A stretch of 64,000 nucleotides of DNA from an uncultured Candidatus Saccharibacteria bacterium (GTDB taxonomy: Bacteria; Patescibacteriota; Minisyncoccia; Minisyncoccales; UBA5738). This document shows positions 7,197 through 22,247 of this stretch, piece after piece. The position numbers were made by a program, and so were the translations under genes. Numbering within the stretch: position 1 is the first letter of the stretch; each line of letters opens with the position of its first letter. The DNA is taken from assembly GCA_964470995.1 (NCBI GenBank), contig CAYYEP010000001.1, positions 65,813-129,812 of the forward strand, in the 5' to 3' direction. Under the pieces are notes generated by a model, which did no database searches, had not been told where the DNA came from, and was given only the letters and a program-made list of their open reading frames with translations.

Positions 7197-7760
7197 TTAA
7201 TAATACTTCTCAATCCCTCCAAAACCAAATTGCTTGTTTTGTCCGGACTTTTTTATGAGATTGGCAAGGCGTTTCTCAAATTCCGCAGGGTGGGATCGCG
7301 CGCTCTCAACATAGCCAACGCGGATTCTTTGGTAGGCTGGAGAAAATTTGCGGAAATTGTCCCAAGCAATTTTGTTGGCTTTAATCTTGGCCATAATGTC
7401 CGGCGGAAACACAAACTTTTTCGCCAACACCGCCTCAACCTCTTTTCGCACCGCCGGAATCACCCTTCCTTCCGCCGCCAGCCGCCGCAACCGCTCAATA
7501 TTCGCCTGCGAATATCCGCTCTTGGGATTGCGCGGCGTAAATCTCTGCGCCAAGGAAAATTCATCAATCTTCTTCACAGTACTATCGATCCACCCAAAAC
7601 AAAGCGCGACCTCGACCGCATCATTGTAAGCTATGCGCGTTTTCCCGGATTTTTTATTGTAATACACTAACCATATCTCCCTTTCAATATCGCGATTCTT
7701 CTTCAGCCAATCATGCCATTTATCCCTTCCGGTAACATATAATTTTTTTCCTATTTCCAT
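7197..7760 (-). CDS. YdeI/OmpD-associated family protein
   Basis: GWIDSTVKKIDEFSLAQRFTPRNPKSGYSQANIERL pattern typical of the YdeI family. Confidence 0.7.
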   Translation of the reverse strand: MEIGKKLYVTGRDKWHDWLKKNRDIEREIWLVYYNKKSGKTRIAYNDAVEVALCFGWIDSTVKKIDEFSLAQRFTPRNPKSGYSQANIERLRRLAAEGRVIPAVRKEVEAVLAKKFVFPPDIMAKIKANKIAWDNFRKFSPAYQRIRVGYVESARSHPAEFEKRLANLIKKSGQNKQFGFGGIEKYY

Positions 7761-7903
7761 TGAACAAATAATTATTTATTATTCGTTTTTATAGCTTCTT
7801 TACTAAATCTATGAATTTTAACAATGATTTTTCATGCGTTCTTTGTAAAACTTAATGGAATTCATGTGGTCAAAGGCGATTTCGCTTTCCGGGGGCAGCG
7901 CCG

Positions 7904-8727: not shown

Positions 8728-9867
8728 TTATTTGTTTAAAATTTTTTTATACAGGCCAATCGTTTTTTCGATCATTATATCCGACCTGAATTGTTTTGCC
8801 GTTTCTTTTGCGGCCAACGACATGCGATGGCGCAAAGCGGTGTCGCGCAATAAAATTCTGATTTTCTCCTCGGCCTCTTCCACATTACCCACGATAAAAC
8901 CGTTTTCCCCATCACGAATAATTTCCGGGGCCACGCCGACAGAAAAACTGACCGGGACTAAACCTTGCGACATTGCCTCAATTAAACTTAGCGAAAATCC
9001 TTCATAACGCGAAGTTAAAACCGCAATACACCCGGCGTATTTTGCGAGTAAAGCCGGAATGCTGTCTTTTACGGCATTCGCAATTATGGAATGATTTACA
9101 ATATTGTCTTTCATCCATTTAACCAGCTTTTTGTTTCTCGACATTGTCACGGAAAATTTTTCGACCTCCGGAAACCGCTGGAAAAGCCAGATGAGCCGAT
9201 CAACTCCCTTTAACTTCAGCGTAAACGGGTCTTCACCGATTCTGCCCAAAAAAATAAGGGCGGGTTCATTTCTCAAGCTCGCATTCGGCGATTCAAACCA
9301 ATAATCCTCAATCGCGTTATAAATCACTTTGATTTTATCGGCCGAAATCCCGACACTTATCAAATCATTTTTTACTATTTCGGATGTGGCAATAATATAA
9401 TCGGCGCGCTCCGCCGCGTATTGCTCGATGGAGGCAATGTCATTAAGCGGGCGGCGGCTTTTTATGTTAAGTTCGCGGAGTACGCCAGCTCGCCTAAAAC
9501 GCAGGAAAATTTCACTGCATCCGTTTTCCAAATTGCTTGTTTTTGGAACGGCTCGCAAAAAACCGATAGTAGTTGAGCCGAAATGCGACACCACCGGCTT
9601 GGAAAAACGAAGAAATGCGAGCGGAGTGTAGGTTGTTCCCTGAATAATATCATGGCGCAGTATGTCTTCGCGCTTTTCCAGCAATGAATAAAAAAAGAGA
9701 ATATTATTGATGCCCTTAAAATTGACCGGCGTATCTTTCAGTAAAAAACGCGGATAAAAATTATTTACCTTGGCGCCCTTCTCTCGCAGCTTACAGGCAA
9801 TAAGATCATTGATAAAATGCGCGCCGGTGCCTTCTTTTTTGTCGCTATGGATAAAAGCTACTTTCAT
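8728..9867 (-). CDS. glycosyltransferase family 4 (GT-B, GT1/GT4-like)
   Basis: C-terminal EGFSLSLIEAMSQGLVPVS...ENGFIV motif. Confidence 0.8.
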   Translation of the reverse strand: MKVAFIHSDKKEGTGAHFINDLIACKLREKGAKVNNFYPRFLLKDTPVNFKGINNILFFYSLLEKREDILRHDIIQGTTYTPLAFLRFSKPVVSHFGSTTIGFLRAVPKTSNLENGCSEIFLRFRRAGVLRELNIKSRRPLNDIASIEQYAAERADYIIATSEIVKNDLISVGISADKIKVIYNAIEDYWFESPNASLRNEPALIFLGRIGEDPFTLKLKGVDRLIWLFQRFPEVEKFSVTMSRNKKLVKWMKDNIVNHSIIANAVKDSIPALLAKYAGCIAVLTSRYEGFSLSLIEAMSQGLVPVSFSVGVAPEIIRDGENGFIVGNVEEAEEKIRILLRDTALRHRMSLAAKETAKQFRSDIMIEKTIGLYKKILNK

Positions 9868-11587: not shown

Positions 11588-11848
11588 TTTAATTCGTGAA
11601 AAAGCGGAGGGGGCGAGATTCAAACTCGCGGTGGCTTTTGGCCACAACGGTTTTCTTCGCTTTGCTGCGGCGTCAATTTCATTGCGGAGGGTGGAGGATT
11701 CGAACCTCCGAGGAGTTTCCCCCAACTGGTTTTCAAGACCAGCGCTATAGGCCACTCAGCCAACCCTCCGCAATGAAATTGACCAAGACCATCTCCTTTC
11801 CTACTGGTCACAACGCTCAGACACCCCTCCGCTTTTTCACGAATTAAA
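11588..11848 (-). other. outer tRNA-Ser-like unit interrupted by a 129-nt insert that carries the functional tRNA; flanked by an 18-nt perfect inverted repeat
   Basis: 5' part GGAGGGGTG...ATGGTCTTG and 3' part AAAACCGT...GCGAGTTTGAATCTCGC-CCCCTCC-G. Flanks TTTAATTCGTGAAAAAGC (11848-11831) and GCTTTTTCACGAATTAAA (11605-11588). Confidence 0.55.
11685..11769 (-). tRNA. tRNA-Ser (anticodon UGA), no encoded CCA
   Basis: Manual cloverleaf: GGAGGGT/ACCCTCC acceptor, D-loop GAGTGGCCTAT, anticodon arm CTGGT-CTTGAAA-ACCAG, long variable arm, GGAGG-TTCGAAT-CCTCC, G73. Confidence 0.85.
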
Positions 11849-16801: not shown

Positions 16802-16980
16802 AATCTCCCCGGGGACAAACGCGACGGGATCTAGGTTGAACCGCCTTCCGCTTTGTTCCAGGCGTCCCCCGCATACTGCGAGGGAAAATTTTCATCCCCC
16901 CCGCTTCCTCCCGATTACGGGAGGCGCCCCGCCGCAGTCGCGGCGGAAAACGCGCGGGGTATTAAGATTTGTTCAATAAA
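16802..16980. repeat. GC-rich multi-hairpin intergenic repeat, copy A (full length, ~179 nt)
   Basis: Near-identical to 34532-34705; the last 83 nt are identical. Contains hairpins CCTCCCG-ATTA-CGGGAGG and CCGCCGC-AGTC-GCGGCGG enclosed by CCCCGC/GCGGGG. Confidence 0.8.
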
Positions 16981-17034
16981 TAAAATTAAAGAGGTTGAAG
17001 CATTATATCCCGAAGGATTGCCCAACCTCTAAAT

Positions 17035-17635: not shown

Positions 17636-17664
17636 GAATTGAAAACACCGTTTGACACGGTGTT
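17636..17664 (-). terminator. putative native terminator of tRNA-Ser(GCU), now separated from it by the integrated element
   Basis: Minus sense AACACCG-TGTCAAA-CGGTGTTTTC immediately follows the attL core. Confidence 0.5.
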
Positions 17665-17672
17665 CAGCGAAA

Positions 17673-17856
17673 GGCGGTGTTTTTTGGACGAAGTTCGAAC
17701 ATTTTTTGAGCAAAACTCCGAATGATTGCGCGCTTCGCGCGCAAAACCGAAACGCTCGGGCGGGCAAAAAGGAAGGGAGTTGGGGGGAAGGAATTTTTGC
17801 CCGCCCTCGCTTTCCGCCGCCGCCGAATTTCGTGCCAACAAAGTTGGCGCGCCGCC
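17673..17856 (+). repeat. inverted repeat IR1-left (P' arm of the att site), ~180 bp, highly structured
   Basis: Reverse complement of 20092-20276, with 1 substitution and 1 single-base indel across the ~156-nt collinear part and a divergent but still self-pairing distal hairpin. Confidence 0.85.
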
Positions 17857-17864
17857 TTTAATTT

Positions 17865-19730
17865 CTAAACTGTAAACCCAACTAATTTAACTAACAGCCA
17901 CGAAATAATCAAGAATGAAATTGAAAAAACGGGAACAAAAACATATTTCATTTTATCTTTTGGCCGGAATGACCAAGATGAATATCCAGCCAATTTCAAT
18001 TGTTCAAATAGATTTTTATCCTCGGGTTTGATTCTTTTGATTATGAAGCTCACAATTAAAGCAGTAATCGGCAAAACATAAATTATCAAAAGAGGAATGA
18101 TGATATCAGAATCTAAATATCTCAGGGAGTAACTAATTTCGCGGATTAGTGATGACAACGCAAATAAACCGAAAACCAGAAAAGGTATGGCAACGAAAAA
18201 TAAAATTGTAGCAACTCTCCTTTTCCATAAATATCCTTTTTGTTTTATTTCGGCAAGCAGAGGTTCTACGCTTTCATTTTTATTTTTCGTGCCAACCAAT
18301 ACTGTCGTTATCAATAATCCTAAAATTGTTAGAAAATTAGACAAACCAATCAAGCCGAGTTTTACCGGCTTTCTTCTTAAATCCTTGAAAATAATCAAGC
18401 CCGCCAAAATTCCAGCGAGTATTGAACTTAAAATAAACAGGATTATTGCGCTTACTATCGGGTGTTTGGCAATAAAAGTTGAGTAGTAAGTTTTGGCGGG
18501 TGCTTGCGCTTTTAGCCACAAGTCATCAGTGAAGAATTTTGACGGCGCGTTGATTTCTATTTTTGTATATTTAATGTTTTGATTTTGTCCGCTATAAAAG
18601 TTTTTCAAGTCATCGGCAAAACTGGCATAGCTATCAATATAATATTCAGTTTTTGTGTAGCTTTCAATATCTTGAAAAACATTTGGCGTAACATGGCCAA
18701 TTACTCTGATTGTTGCCGGAACTGTTTTGCTACCATAGACGCTTGTCGGAAGAAGTGGAAAATATATTTCTTTCGTGGGGAATGTTACAAATACTCCCTT
18801 TTGGTTAGCTAAGTTCTGATTTTTGTTATAGGTATCTACGATTATTGACGGGTCATTTTGAATAGCTTGCGTTAATTCCTGCAAAACAGTTCCGCCTTGT
18901 TGGGATTTCAAATAATCAGTTGAATTGTTAGCTTGATTAAATTCGGGATATTTTTGTTTTAAGCTATTTACTAAGTCAAAAAATTTTGGATAGCGGTATT
19001 GACTCGAAAAGTAGATATAAAGATTATTTTTTATATCGTCAGCCGAAATGATTTTTTCTGGCGAGCTTATCCATGAAGCGACAAAAGAAAATTCTTTGCC
19101 GATATAATTATCCAAAACTGGAATCGAGCCACTTTCAATTTTTAACCCCTTATTTTTCAAATAATCGTAGAGTCCGTTGGCTGTTTTTGCAGTAATTATT
19201 TCTGATGAAATTCCTTCTTTGTCTAAATGTTCGTAAACAACAACATCCGGTACAATTCCCTTACCGATTCCTTGTGGTGCTGCACCCAAAGCATTATCCA
19301 TGCCTCTGCCCGCCGAGAGAGTCCCATAAAAAGAAACAAAAGGAATTGTATAAAGTTGCGTCATTTGTAAAAACTTCGTTGTATCGTCAAGATTTGATTT
19401 CGCTTTTCTTGAAACTTCTTCACCGCTTAATCCGGGCAGACTTTTTACTACATCAATAGCAACTTTATTCGGATCGGCAGGAACGGGGAAAAGCCAAACC
19501 ACTCCTTTGCTGTTTTCTCCTTCAAGTCCAACGCTGATAATCATTTTTTGCAATCCGTTATTATAATTAATAAACGCTTGCTGATTACTTTCATTTGAAT
19601 AATCCCAACGGTCTGAATAAGGATCGGGTTTCATCATCATTCCGTCTGCAAAAACTGACTTTGGAATAAAGGAAGCTATCGCCAAAAATGTAATTAGCGA
19701 TAATGTAATAAATGAGAGTGATTTTTTCAT
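17865..19730 (-). CDS. cargo: large exported protein with a C-terminal 5-TM anchor (possibly DUF2330-like)
   Basis: 621 aa: signal peptide MKKSLSFITLSLITFLAIASF, ~400-aa extracytoplasmic region, five C-terminal hydrophobic helices. AT-rich codon usage. Confidence 0.75.
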   Translation of the reverse strand: MKKSLSFITLSLITFLAIASFIPKSVFADGMMMKPDPYSDRWDYSNESNQQAFINYNNGLQKMIISVGLEGENSKGVVWLFPVPADPNKVAIDVVKSLPGLSGEEVSRKAKSNLDDTTKFLQMTQLYTIPFVSFYGTLSAGRGMDNALGAAPQGIGKGIVPDVVVYEHLDKEGISSEIITAKTANGLYDYLKNKGLKIESGSIPVLDNYIGKEFSFVASWISSPEKIISADDIKNNLYIYFSSQYRYPKFFDLVNSLKQKYPEFNQANNSTDYLKSQQGGTVLQELTQAIQNDPSIIVDTYNKNQNLANQKGVFVTFPTKEIYFPLLPTSVYGSKTVPATIRVIGHVTPNVFQDIESYTKTEYYIDSYASFADDLKNFYSGQNQNIKYTKIEINAPSKFFTDDLWLKAQAPAKTYYSTFIAKHPIVSAIILFILSSILAGILAGLIIFKDLRRKPVKLGLIGLSNFLTILGLLITTVLVGTKNKNESVEPLLAEIKQKGYLWKRRVATILFFVAIPFLVFGLFALSSLIREISYSLRYLDSDIIIPLLIIYVLPITALIVSFIIKRIKPEDKNLFEQLKLAGYSSWSFRPKDKMKYVFVPVFSISFLIISWLLVKLVGFTV

Positions 19731-19745
19731 AATTTTATTTTACGA

Positions 19746-19943
19746 TTATTTTATTAACTCATCAACGCTAACCTCAAGAGCTTTCGCGATTTTCTTGAGG
19801 GTATCCAGCGTTGGATTCTGGTTTTTACCAGCTTCAATTTTGATAATTGTATTATTGGCGACATCGGCCAATCTCGCCAACTTTTCTTGGGAAAGCCCTT
19901 TGGCTTCCCTTAACCTTCTTAAATTTTTAGTAATGTTTGACAT
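19746..19943 (-). CDS. cargo: XRE-family helix-turn-helix transcriptional regulator
   Basis: LRRLREAKGLSQEKLARLADVANNTIIKIEAGKNQNPTLDTLKKIAKALEVSVDEL. Confidence 0.85.
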   Translation of the reverse strand: MSNITKNLRRLREAKGLSQEKLARLADVANNTIIKIEAGKNQNPTLDTLKKIAKALEVSVDELIK

Positions 19944-20091
19944 AACTTATATCTTAGTAGTAGAATTAAAGTATTAGGATATATTTCCTTTCAACTACTA
20001 TAATGCTACACCAAAAATTAAGAAAAGTAAATAATGGGAGAAAAATTGTTGTGTGCGCACGGGTGGGTGGGGCAAACACAACTCCATTTTT

Positions 20092-20276
20092 GGCGGCGCA
20101 TTTTGCAAAGCAAAATACGAAATTCGGCGGCGGCGGAAAGCGAGGGCGGGCAAAAATTCCTTCCCCCAACCCCCTTCCTTTTTGCCCGCCCGAGCGTTTC
20201 GGTTTTGCGCGCGAAGCGCGCAATCATTCGGAGTTTTGCTCAAAAAATGTTCGAACTTCGTCCAAAAAACACCGCC
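20092..20276 (-). repeat. inverted repeat IR1-right (inverted P' arm)
   Basis: See 17673-17856. Core CCGCC at 20272-20276. Confidence 0.85.
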
Positions 20277-20404
20277 AATTTTCACTTTTTGTGAAATCGT
20301 AAGAAACTGCCTCGGCACAAAGCGCCTCGGCATGGTATTTTTCCGCAATTTTGAAAGCATTTTTGAAATCCAAAACCAAAGTGCGGTCGGTAATGCGGAA
20401 GTTC
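20277..20404 (-). repeat. inverted repeat IR2-left: inverted copy of the last 128 nt of the recombinase P arm
   Basis: 100% identical to the reverse complement of 21890-22017. Together with 20092-20276 it forms a complete inverted attP-like junction (ORF 20224..20439 = ...NFRITDRTLVLDF...SENWR+CFLDEVRTFFEQNSE*). Confidence 0.85.
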
Positions 20405-20519
20405 GCCGTGCAAAGCACGGGCAAAATGAAATTTTGCAAACCAATCTTTTTTCTTTCGCTTTCAGCGAAAGGTTGAGCGTATTTTTCTTTGATTGCCCAA
20501 AAACTAATTTCAAAACAAT

Positions 20520-22247
20520 ATGGACAACATAAATTTACAAACCAAAAAGATTTTTCTCTATGCTCGTAAATCCACGGACGAGCCAGAGCGACAAATTCTT
20601 TCCATTGAAGCGCAACTTTTTGAATTACGAGAATTTGCCAAAAAGGAAGGATTAAATATCGTCCGTGAATTCGTGGAGAGCAAAACCGCCAAAGAGCCGG
20701 GCAGAGAGATTTTTAACAAAATGGTGGCAAGCATAGAGAAAAATGAAGCCGAAGGAATTTTAGCGTGGCACCCTGACCGCTTAGCTCGAAATAGCATAGA
20801 CGGCGGACGGATAATCTATCTCGTAGATACTGGGAAGATTACCACGCTAAAATTTCCAACTTTTTGGTTTGATCCGACACCGCAGGGAAAATTTATGTTG
20901 TCCATTGCTTTTGGGCAATCAAAATATTATGTGGATAATCTTTCGGAAAATATAAAGAGGGGTATTCGCCAGAAATTGCGAAATGGAATATGGCCCGCTT
21001 GGGCGCCACTTGGCTATATAAACGGCAAAAACGCCCGCTGTATCGCCGTGGACAAAGAAAAGGCAAAGTATATCAAGCGGGCTTTTGAAATGTATGCAAC
21101 TGGCGAATACCCCCTCGCTCAAATCCGAAAGATTATCAATTCCTTGGGCTTGGTTGGCAAGAAAGGCAAAATGCTTTCCGTTTCAAATTATCAGTATATG
21201 CTGAAAAATAAAATCTATTACGGAATGATTGAGTATAACGGCGAAATGTATGACGGAAAGCATGAACCGATTATCACAAAGAAACTTTTTGATTCCGTTC
21301 AAGAAGTGATGGTGAGAAAGTCCAAACCGAAAACGCCAAAATTGAAACCGTATGTGTACAGAGGATTTTTCCGTTGCGGAGAGTGCGGTTGTTTCATTAC
21401 CACCGAAACGCAAAAAGGACATAACTATTTGCGTTGTACCAAACGGAAAAATCCTTGCACGCAAAGATATGTTCGCGAAGAAATCATCACTTCTCAAATA
21501 AAGGAGGAAATCAAAAAAGTTTCTTTGTCTTCCGTTTGGGCAAACGCTTCAATCAATTATTTTGAAAATGAAAAAATGAAAATTGCCCAAACGGAAAGCT
21601 CTTTCGCCCAAAAAGCGAGAAATGAGCTTGTGGAGATAGAAACAAAGCTTGATCGTTTGCTTGATTTACAACTAGACGGCAATTTGTCGCAAGTGGAATA
21701 TACCACCAAAAAGCACAAACTCATTCTCGCTAAAAAAGATTTGGAAGAAAAAATCACCGCTTTTGGGCGAAAGAGCAATAATCGGTTCGAACTTGCCATT
21801 GCCTTTCTAAAAGACGCCAACCAAGCCGAAAAATACGCTCAACAAGAAAATCCCGAAAGGATTCGGGATTTTCTCAAAAAGATTGGTTCGAACTTCCGCA
21901 TTACCGACCGCACTTTGGTTTTGGATTTCAAAAATGCTTTCAAAATTGCGGAAAAATACCATGCCGAGGCGCTTTGTGCCGAGGCAGTTTCTTACGATTT
22001 CACAAAAAGTGAAAATTGGCGGAGGGGGCGGGATTCGAACCCACGGACGGCTTTAAGACCGTCAGAGGTTAGCAACCTCTTGCAATGCCGCTATGCGACC
22101 CCTCCACAGATTGATCTGCGATCAAATTGCAAATTCCAAACCCTAAGCACCAATTATCAAGATAATACAAAACGACATTCCAATAATAACGTTAAAGACC
22201 GCTTTGGTCAATCTCAACCCCGAAGAGCGCCTGCGTATTCCCCGTAG
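20520..22247 (+). CDS. large serine recombinase (integrase)
   Basis: N-terminal resolvase domain (IFLYARKSTDEPERQILSIEAQ), recombinase domain, Zn-ribbon CGECGC...CTKRKNPC, coiled-coil region. The ORF runs through tRNA-Ser and stops only at 22247. Confidence 0.85.
   Translation: MDNINLQTKKIFLYARKSTDEPERQILSIEAQLFELREFAKKEGLNIVREFVESKTAKEPGREIFNKMVASIEKNEAEGILAWHPDRLARNSIDGGRIIYLVDTGKITTLKFPTFWFDPTPQGKFMLSIAFGQSKYYVDNLSENIKRGIRQKLRNGIWPAWAPLGYINGKNARCIAVDKEKAKYIKRAFEMYATGEYPLAQIRKIINSLGLVGKKGKMLSVSNYQYMLKNKIYYGMIEYNGEMYDGKHEPIITKKLFDSVQEVMVRKSKPKTPKLKPYVYRGFFRCGECGCFITTETQKGHNYLRCTKRKNPCTQRYVREEIITSQIKEEIKKVSLSSVWANASINYFENEKMKIAQTESSFAQKARNELVEIETKLDRLLDLQLDGNLSQVEYTTKKHKLILAKKDLEEKITAFGRKSNNRFELAIAFLKDANQAEKYAQQENPERIRDFLKKIGSNFRITDRTLVLDFKNAFKIAEKYHAEALCAEAVSYDFTKSENWRRGRDSNPRTALRPSEVSNLLQCRYATPPQIDLRSNCKFQTLSTNYQDNTKRHSNNNVKDRFGQSQPRRAPAYSP
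22017..22105 (-). tRNA. tRNA-Ser (anticodon GCU), CCA encoded
   Basis: GGAGGGG-TC-GCA-TAGCGGCAT-TGC-A-AGAGG-TTGCTAA-CCTCT-long variable arm-GTGGG-TTCGAAT-CCCGC-CCCCTCC-G-CCA. Confidence 0.85.

Follow-up and report, generated by a model that had tools for sequence, protein, structure and literature searches.

This study concerns a stretch of 64,000 nucleotides from an uncultured Candidatus Saccharibacteria bacterium (contig CAYYEP010000001.1, positions 65,813 to 129,812), hereafter the window, and a small mobile element within it that occupies the 3′ end of a gene for tRNA-Ser(GCU). The 4,345-bp element was very probably put there by its own large serine recombinase (LSR), and it holds in its interior, in inverted orientation, a junction designated Y, which we read as the second attachment site (attP) of a free circle carrying two such sites. 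That the structure as a whole is an LSR integrative element we regard as very likely; whether Y functions as an attP, or serves merely for binding or as a structural site, we consider an evenly balanced question. An initial annotation, drawn from the letters alone, had described the element and its junctions, and what is chiefly added here is that the two-attP layout recurs throughout the integrase family and that this family is very broadly spread.

The integrated element, its junctions, and its genes

The initial annotation had reported three junctions that share a GGCGG core, and a reading of the sequence between 17200 and 22500 finds all three where they had been placed: Z at 17673-17677, Y at 20272-20276 (inverted, and hence CCGCC), and X at 22018-22022. 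The sequence common to these junctions is, however, much longer than had been described. Positions 20272-20405 and 21889-22022 form an inverted repeat of 134 nt at 100% identity, comprising the P arm of the element and the core (repeat finder and self-BLAST), while positions 17673-17833 and 20117-20276 form a second inverted repeat of ~161 nt at 98.8% identity, with one mismatch and one gap, comprising the core and the P′ arm. It follows from these long inverted repeats that the reverse complement of Y is exactly P-GGCGG-P′, that Z is B-GGCGG-P′, and that X is P-GGCGG-B′, B and B′ being the arms contributed by the host. Repeats and junction sequences agree with the earlier assignment of Z as attL, X as attR, and Y as attP, and with the attB that it implied, and the three-junction pattern is far beyond chance. 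With respect to Y, the attP configuration stands, but the oddity of an attP within an integrated element, as well as its recurrence throughout the family, had been missed; an intact attP inside an integrated serine-integrase element is unexpected and therefore needs an explanation. The outer ends of the element, P′ and P, are not inverted repeats of each other, and its GC content in 500-nt windows is ~34-41%, as against ~47-54% in the flanks, with 46% in the window that contains the GC-rich Y repeat.

Read from left to right, attL opens with its B arm (17643-17672, minus strand), which is the displaced native terminator hairpin of the tRNA-Ser(GCU) gene (stems at 17643-17651 and 17657-17665). 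It is followed on the plus strand by the core at Z, located both in the sequence and by the repeat finder, and by the attL copy of the P′ arm (17678-17833), which contains GC-rich hairpins, the motif TTCGAAC at +17 to +23 from the core, and the coding sequence for a 15-codon native tail of the integrase gene, int. The second complete attP, Y, occupies 20117-20405 in minus orientation, with reverse-complemented P′ at 20117-20271, the core at 20272-20276, and reverse-complemented P at 20277-20405. In attR, the P arm (21889-22017, plus strand) encodes Int residues ~457-500, and its last base is the A of the CCA end of the tRNA; the core at X, also on the plus strand, corresponds on the tRNA strand to C71, C72, G73, C74, and C75. 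The tRNA-Ser(GCU) gene itself (22017-22105, minus strand) is complete according to both ARAGORN and Rfam, its 3′ part serves as the B′ arm, and its T-loop TTCGAAC lies at +12 to +18 from the core; the Rfam scan returned nothing beyond this tRNA. The proposed attB also bears reconstruction, as joining the left side of Z to the right side of X restores the 3′ end of tRNA-Ser(GCU) followed by a hairpin with a 9-bp stem and a T-rich tail, which folds at -12.8 kcal/mol (z-score -1.9).

A related genome without the insert, which had been suggested as a check, was reached through a search for NadE homologues, which put the host within Patescibacteria, near sequences named Minisyncoccales and Paceibacterota, and led to a syntenic relative (L122). 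It has the gene order NadE-TerC-TatD ... tRNA-Ser(GCU) ... VWA-ATPase, with 69-86% amino-acid identity to the window, and a tRNA-Ser(GCU) gene identical to that of the window at 88/88 nt, and it lacks the 4.3-kb insert: the tRNA 3′ end, CCTCCGCC, passes directly into unrelated, non-element DNA, and the VWA gene starts 489 bp away. Just downstream of this tRNA (L122 4201-4380) are two 62-nt direct repeats and a small GIY-YIG open reading frame (ORF), which may represent a different small mobile element at the same spot. Logan contigs that carry the identical cargo protein or the flanks of the element all break ~26-27 nt into the repeats and are uninformative with regard to orientation and empty sites, while two others (L090 and L091, from two samples, with an identical VWA gene) end ~220 bp past VWA and before Z, corresponding to 16900-17000 of the window. 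A tRNA-Ser-3′-end-like fragment, gcgagTTTGAATctcgccccctccgc, is found at 11600-11640 (minus strand), ~60 nt downstream of an intact and unoccupied tRNA-Ser(UGA) gene (11684-11769). Its presence in L122 as well (9523-9577, 92.7% identity) makes it old and conserved rather than a fresh scar; an ancient att remnant and a small RNA are both conceivable.

The element was said to carry int, an XRE regulator, and one large membrane protein, and all three prove to be real genes, among which no phage capsid, tail, terminase, or lysis gene is found. The int gene (20520-22247, plus strand) belongs to the element in its codons 1-501; the reading frame crosses the core at codons 500-501 and continues through attR and the antisense strand of the tRNA to give 575 amino acids (aa), whereas across P-O-P′, O being the core, it would meet a stop after 15 further codons and give 516 aa. 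Its Pfam domains are, in order, PF00239 Resolvase (E=1e-19), PF07508 Recombinase (9e-17), and PF13408 Zn_ribbon_recom (5e-8), and a catalytic-serine-type motif of the form Y-x-R-x-S-T, YARKST, was recognized by eye in the translation at residues 14-19; domain set and motif both accord with the predicted identity as an LSR. Matches in the PDB are weak but specific, the sole solved relatives being the C-terminal domain of the A118 integrase (4KIS) and resolvase catalytic domains, and identity to any annotated phage or plasmid record is ~24-30% (phage records at most 29%). Exact-protein look-ups of the 575-aa Int, of the long TatD ORF, and of a 71-aa zinc-ribbon ORF gave no match, probably owing to differing gene-caller starts or ends.

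Upstream of int lies its leader with the presumed promoter region (20406-20519, plus strand), which is 87-100% conserved across loci and of which a part is a decayed inverted copy of int codons 437-456. In a tblastn comparison, the minus strand at 20487-20278, which includes part of the leader, aligns at 71% identity with Int residues 437-499, of which it is a decayed copy. As this copy extends beyond the 134-nt repeat, the inverted duplication must originally have been longer, a situation that points to precisely the P arm being actively maintained. Within int, the motif GTTCGAAC occurs at 21785-21792 and at 21886-21893, the second occurrence marking the distal end of the P repeat; the 64-kb window holds just four copies of it, all within the element. 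These two sites, which carry the sequence GGTTCGAACTT, lie 101 bp apart and in two different reading frames, the second coinciding with the inner end of the 134-nt repeat.

The cargo operon is headed by the gene for the 65-aa XRE/HTH_3 regulator (19746-19943, minus strand; Pfam E=2e-18), which resembles the control proteins of restriction-modification systems and capH (PADLOC). Most relatives share with the element, apart from int, just one gene, that for an XRE protein of 65-70 aa. A perfect palindrome, TTTTGCAAAGCAAAA (20101-20115), separates the XRE gene from Y in a stretch conserved across loci and is a candidate XRE operator. The second gene of the cargo (17865-19730, minus strand) specifies a protein of 621 aa that begins with a signal-like N-terminus, continues with a domain of ~390 aa, and has five hydrophobic segments towards its C-terminus; its sole Pfam match is a weak one to DUF2330 (E=0.004), and no defence model in PADLOC matched it. 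Small ORFs that run across Y were set aside as by-products of the duplicated coding sequence and the hairpins.

Layout, cargo, and targeting in related loci

A family scan using one genome per GTDB species found at least 577 species-genome matches that encode a relative of Int, and the best ~50 of the matches listed share 88-96% protein identity with it. The record titles of these best relatives include Paceibacterota, Saccharibacteria, Gracilibacteria, Moraniibacteriota, Magasanikbacteria, Andersenbacteria, Peribacteria, and others, and the family is very widespread in Patescibacteria and apparently undescribed; neither the family nor an internal inverted attP in a natural LSR system was found described in open-access papers and preprints, which is not proof of novelty. 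In the 2.9 million contigs of IMG/VR the family is near-absent, with one relative at 58% identity. In view of this near-absence, of the lack of phage genes in the element, and of the low identity to phage records, a viral origin or a temperate phage was rejected.

The loci examined share a recurrent layout at tRNA-Ser genes, namely attL, an XRE-led cargo, an inverted attP, int, and attR. The Y junction is P|GGCGG|P′ in 28 of 30 related loci, and self-comparison shows two adjacent pairs of inverted repeats meeting at Y in every locus that is long enough; both pairs are resolved in ~16 close relatives, as well as in three distant ones (L067, L073, and L079). The P′ repeats, of 156-404 nt except in L024, where the match spans 51 nt, mostly show 97-100% identity between the copies of one locus and flank 1.3-7 kb of cargo, and the P repeats (133-134 nt) flank int. 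In the three distant relatives, two of which are Elusimicrobiales (L067 and L079) and the third a complete genome labelled Candidatus Parcubacteria (L073, AP024682.1), the layout is kept at ~61-65% integrase identity with P repeats of 99-144 nt and lineage-specific cores such as AAAAAGTTCGGAG and TTGGTGG. An XRE-type regulator adjoins Y and heads an operon directed away from it in 15 of the 17 cargo modules examined, the exceptions being one with the cargo flipped, so that XRE stands next to Z (L040), and one without XRE (L031).

These data bear directly on the possibility that the layout is an assembly artefact, arising either as a chimera of integrated and circular forms or by fold-back amplification. 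The window does derive from a metagenome-type assembly, and perfect 134-nt repeats do yield palindromic contigs, L100 among them. Against this, the same layout appears in dozens of independent assemblies made with different assemblers, including the complete genome L073 and also L043, presumably a long-read assembly to judge from its contig name. The two P′ copies of the window differ by a mismatch and an indel, and P copies elsewhere differ by up to 15%; in eight loci the divergence between the two P copies is 9-15%, so that they must be two distinct stretches of DNA and cannot stem from the collapse of one repeat. The cargo module, moreover, is joined to P′ sequence at either end, a result that no mixture of simple forms would give. 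We consider the artefact reading to have next to no chance of being correct, and it is effectively refuted.

The cargo of the relatives includes an NgoPII-type endonuclease with a C5-methylase, type III Res/Mod, type I S/M, a Dam-type methylase with an AAA_13 protein, PDC-S06, HEC-05 with a type IV endonuclease domain, and an Hsp70-like protein, from which it follows that the integrase family mainly moves restriction-modification and other defence genes. Two loci depart from the common layout. In L032 (2024-2189) an 80-nt truncated P arm abuts a tRNA-Ser(GCU) near a full element at another tRNA-Ser, a decayed attR remnant, and in L117 (9650-10000) a recombinant int, whose 5′ part comes from another lineage, is preceded by an orphan tRNA-Ser 5′ half and then a complete tRNA-Ser(GCU), but by no P repeat; the latter locus looks like a hybrid element.

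With regard to targeting, segment BLAST and junction extraction recovered 35 P|GGCGG|tRNA junctions in related loci. The target is always a tRNA-Ser gene in ARAGORN calls, with all four anticodons represented (GCU, CGA, GGA, and UGA), and dozens of unrelated genomes have hybrid att sites built in the same way at their tRNA-Ser genes. P is always joined to the tRNA side and P′ to the terminator side. The core at Z reads GGCGG, TGCGG, or TTCGG in relatives, and this variation leaves only CGG common to element and host and places the crossover within it; the constant polarity of insertion favors GG over the palindromic CG, which we consider an unlikely crossover dinucleotide.

In the A118 model, the zinc-ribbon motif lies at bp 11-19 of the attB half-site and at bp 16-24 of the attP half-site (PMC3783163). 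The motif TTCGAAC, at +12 to +18 in the B′ arm contributed by the tRNA and at +17 to +23 in P′, is likewise 5 bp nearer to the core in B′, and, judged from the sequence, the sites obey the published 5-bp rule for attB and attP half-sites of LSRs. In the P and B arms the half-site match is weak, and hosts differ in the sequence of the B arm. Published LSRs use simple sites of 40-50 bp, and attP is not recombined with attP, attL, or attR (PMC3783163). In place of a simple, single attP of 40-50 bp, the present family has two attP copies and a conserved P arm of 133-134 nt. In 45 of 47 loci the hexamer TTCGAA is present, counted from the core end, near -136, where the P repeat has its distal end, and near -237; the two copies fall in different reading frames of int, and both positions are kept even in relatives with ~61% integrase identity, a pattern that suggests extra integrase-binding sites and hence what may be a complex attP.

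The internal attP and the arrangements of the family

We propose that the attP (P-GGCGG-P′) on a free, presumably circular form would recombine with attB, consisting of the tRNA acceptor end and the downstream DNA, through a 2-bp crossover within CGG, most likely with GG pairing with C71-C72 of the tRNA. The products would be attL (Z) and attR (X), with the P arm rebuilding the tRNA end including its CCA and the terminator being left beyond the element. The integrase would mainly read the T-arm of the tRNA, and such reading, combined with the 5-bp shift, would allow any tRNA-Ser gene in any host to serve as a target. The free form would be a circle in which two inverted attP copies split the int module from the module of XRE and cargo: an alpha attP overlapping the int 3′ end and a beta attP between the divergent XRE and int genes. 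In the window, alpha would have been used, giving attL and attR and swapping the last 15 codons of int for antisense-tRNA sequence, while beta would have been left intact as Y. We infer the circular two-attP form, the recombination of Y, the position of the crossover, and the route of excision; the conservation of Y across the family argues for a function of this putative site.

Under the two-attP model a second isomer should exist, with reverse-complemented P and the int leader placed after the tRNA, then an int with its native tail, and then a P-O-P′ junction that adjoins the cargo operon at its 3′ end. Contigs with the corresponding tRNA-rcP-leader junction, rcP being reverse-complemented P, were sought by pattern matching, and 25 were obtained from metagenomes. 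Most of these were rejected as flipped isomers, some because the contig stops too soon and others because their P copies are identical, so that a wrong turn within the repeat might have produced the junction; L100, a perfect palindrome of 1138 nt, was dismissed as an artefact. In L093, a contig of 543 kb, the order tRNA|core|rcP|int (516 aa, native tail)|P|core|P′|cargo corresponds to the predicted isomer, and its P copies are 85.8% alike. In L126 it is the int module that is inverted with respect to the cargo modules on either side of it, and the repeats that enclose it, of 462 nt, are 93.9% alike. Two contigs from sister JGI samples (L118 1-8705 and L119 1-5958) encode an identical 519-aa Int and have the same 4 kb of type III restriction-modification cargo at 100% identity, in opposite orientations relative to int. 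Among the C-terminal tails of Int homologues in 120 clusters, 61 are of the antisense-tRNA kind (RGRDSNPR...) and 17 are native (CFLDEVRTFFEQN...), the latter being compatible with circles, tandem arrays, or the other isomer.

An inventory of this kind invites the explanation that DNA inversion is the main purpose of the repeats, with int and cargo modules flipped by RecA or by Int to switch expression, for example by placing int downstream of the tRNA promoter with its native C-terminus restored or by coupling the cargo operon to int. All four orientation combinations occur among relatives (cargo flipped in L040, int in L126, cargo both ways in L118/L119, and both in L093), an int flip would alter the last 15 to ~74 residues of the protein, and many contigs break at the repeats. 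Yet both modules carry complete genes with their own upstream regions, so that flipping would bring little obvious change, one orientation is heavily favored, the perfect repeats make short-read orientation unreliable, and inversion gives no account of why the repeats are exactly attP arms that meet at the core. We therefore regard inversion as the main purpose of the repeats as a doubtful proposition; module flipping, if it occurs, is more likely to be driven by RecA through the 134-400-nt repeats than by the integrase. A serine invertase of the Hin/Gin/Cin/Pin type was rejected. Such enzymes are ~190-aa recombinases with a C-terminal helix-turn-helix that act on ~26-bp sites with an enhancer, whereas the present recombinase has 516-575 aa with LSR domains and the repeats, of 134 and 161 nt, are attP arms.

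Reuse of an occupied site is apparent from tandem arrays in L018 (two elements before a tRNA-Ser(CGA) at 7696-7782), L073, and L126, in which different family members are joined by hybrid P(A)-core-P′(B) junctions, and it is what one would expect of an integrase for which chiefly the tRNA arm matters, whatever the sequence opposite. In L027 (7667-9589, on the same contig as L102), a lone int module stands between two inverted, identical tRNA-Ser(GGA) genes with different outer flanks, as would be expected if the spare attP had recombined with a second tRNA-Ser, a chimeric scaffold being a possible alternative. The two P copies of L027 are of different variants.

The lone int module of L027 also speaks for a reading in which two adjacent mobile units are present, a non-autonomous cargo cassette with P′ terminal inverted repeats and an autonomous int unit with P repeats, each inserting at the GGCGG core and mobilized by the same integrase. 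Each unit is indeed bounded by its own inverted repeat with the core at every junction, and the cargo varies freely while int stays 88-96% identical. Conservative recombination between inverted sites cannot, however, release the segment between them, and the site belonging to each unit would bring together two half-sites of the attP type, a pairing on which LSRs do not act (PMC3783163). A cargo unit by itself was not encountered, and P is always on the tRNA side and P′ on the terminator side, as for one attP. Two separate units are thus improbable. Likewise rejected were an insertion sequence (IS) or transposon, including the IS607 type, as the ends are not mutual inverted repeats and insertion is always at the tRNA-Ser 3′ end with one polarity, and a CTXphi-like, single-stranded fold-back attP, as double-strand cleavage of a hairpin stem would leave hairpin-capped chromosome ends.

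Several observations weigh against the proposed integration and the two-attP circle with Y as its second attP. The int-towards-tRNA isomer dominates, by 28:2 among genome loci and by ~3.6:1 among protein tails, a bias that is not predicted by the symmetric two-attP model, which expects approximately equal isomers; selection is a possible reason for it, since in the other isomer, for example, int would lie downstream of the tRNA promoter and other tRNA-Ser genes would be targets for harmful rearrangements. A live internal attP would endanger a chromosome with other tRNA-Ser genes, and under LSR rules (PMC3783163) integrase-driven flipping is not expected. Short-read assemblers cannot reliably orient segments between perfect repeats of 134-400 nt, so that only L093, L126, and L027 are trustworthy alternative arrangements. 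The sequence of Y equals that of the expected circle junction, which makes the two indistinguishable. The relative with the empty site is a different species at ~74% nucleotide identity and not the same strain, and an exact 34-nt probe for the empty site had 0 matches in JGI metagenomes. Finally, no directionality factor was recognized in the element, such factors having no common signature; the conserved 65-aa XRE protein is the only candidate.

Some of the same facts can be accommodated if Y, between the divergent genes for XRE and Int, is no recombination substrate but serves to bind the integrase or as a structural site. It might auto-repress or insulate both promoters, as in the res site of Tn3, or make the int mRNA leader complementary to its own 3′ end, and the account of integration would be unchanged. 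Y lies exactly between divergent XRE and int in 15 of 17 cargo modules, dominance of the int-towards-tRNA isomer is what would be expected if only one attP were ever used, and a P arm of 129 nt, with TTCGAA at -136 and -237, far exceeds an LSR half-site and hints at extra binding sites. On the other side, the repeats do not include the likely promoters, which are in the unique leader of int and the region upstream of XRE, ~290 nt of near-perfect identity to both element ends are unnecessary for regulation, and an arrangement with the other attP consumed exists (L093). A purely regulatory or structural Y is, in our estimation, unlikely, and an LSR element with a second attP is the reading that, taken as a whole, we consider likely and carry forward.

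Known systems and the significance of the family

Judged by its features, the element would share most of the hallmarks of LSR integrative elements, apart from a single simple attP, and it is instructive to compare it with better-known systems. With phage-type LSRs (A118/LI, phiC31, Bxb1, TP901-1, and SPbeta SprA) it has in common the three-domain recombinase, the short common core, the conversion of attP and attB into attL and attR, the 5-bp shift of the zinc ribbon, and a polarity set by the central dinucleotide. It differs from them in targeting a tRNA 3′ end, in an attP that overlaps the int 3′ end, in the lack of phage genes, in conserved arms of 129 nt and at least 156 nt rather than ~25 nt, in keeping a second, inverted attP, and in having no recognizable directionality factor. 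SCCmec/Ccr elements at orfX are similar as small LSR cargo islands that regenerate the 3′ end of a conserved gene and form tandem arrays, but they have no internal inverted site, target rlmH/orfX, and carry resistance cargo in staphylococci. Islands targeted to tRNA genes by tyrosine integrases resemble the element in insertion at, and restoration of, the tRNA 3′ end, in variable and mostly defence-related cargo, and in their arrays, whereas they differ in that most use tyrosine integrases and direct repeats of the tRNA end; tycheposons are similar tRNA-targeting islands, and we know of no inverted spare attP in any tRNA-targeting genomic or defence island.

Parallels to the internal site itself are found in other systems. 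The yeast 2-micron plasmid (Flp/FRT, with 599-bp inverted repeats) is, like the proposed circle, divided into two segments by site-bearing repeats, and both segment orientations are found in nature for it and for the element family. Flp is, however, a tyrosine recombinase that recombines identical sites, and the plasmid replicates and does not integrate, whereas an LSR is not expected to pair two attP and the element has no replication gene, so that the analogy is one of layout only. The res site of Tn3 and gamma-delta is a serine-recombinase site between divergent genes (tnpA and tnpR), with a recombinase that may also be a repressor, but it serves a small resolvase, has three subsites, works solely between direct repeats of a cointegrate, and is not duplicated at the element ends. 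The double attP of CTXphi also places two inverted attachment-site copies within one small element, but these are ~90 nt apart and act as a folded single strand on which host tyrosine recombinases (XerCD) exchange one strand pair.

Serine integrases are prized for genome engineering on account of their short sites and one-way reaction, and the family described here departs from the textbook LSR layout in its two attP, its long conserved arms, and a site that overlaps int. It uses a near-universal target, the T-arm and acceptor end of tRNA-Ser, in very different hosts, and it appears to be a major vehicle of restriction-modification and other defence genes in Patescibacteria, a group with mobile elements about which little is known. 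That the integrase is nearly identical from class to class suggests a very recent and very broad horizontal spread of an element without obvious transfer machinery.

It is conceivable, although we hold it to be a speculative extension, that the spare attP is a working part of a new serine-integrase life cycle, with three possible effects. First, a two-attP circle could insert in two configurations, one of which rewrites the Int C-terminus with antisense-tRNA sequence, while the other keeps the integrase whole and sets it downstream of the tRNA promoter. Second, the retained attP could react again with integrase alone, allowing the element to hop or rearrange between tRNA-Ser genes and to capture DNA bearing attB. 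Third, it could replace a directionality factor by a DNA-encoded function in cis. If so, this would help to explain how a three-gene element without transfer genes has spread at ~90% identity across the classes of Patescibacteria, and a functional spare attP would make the family a natural instance of reusable or reversible serine integration without a separate directionality protein.

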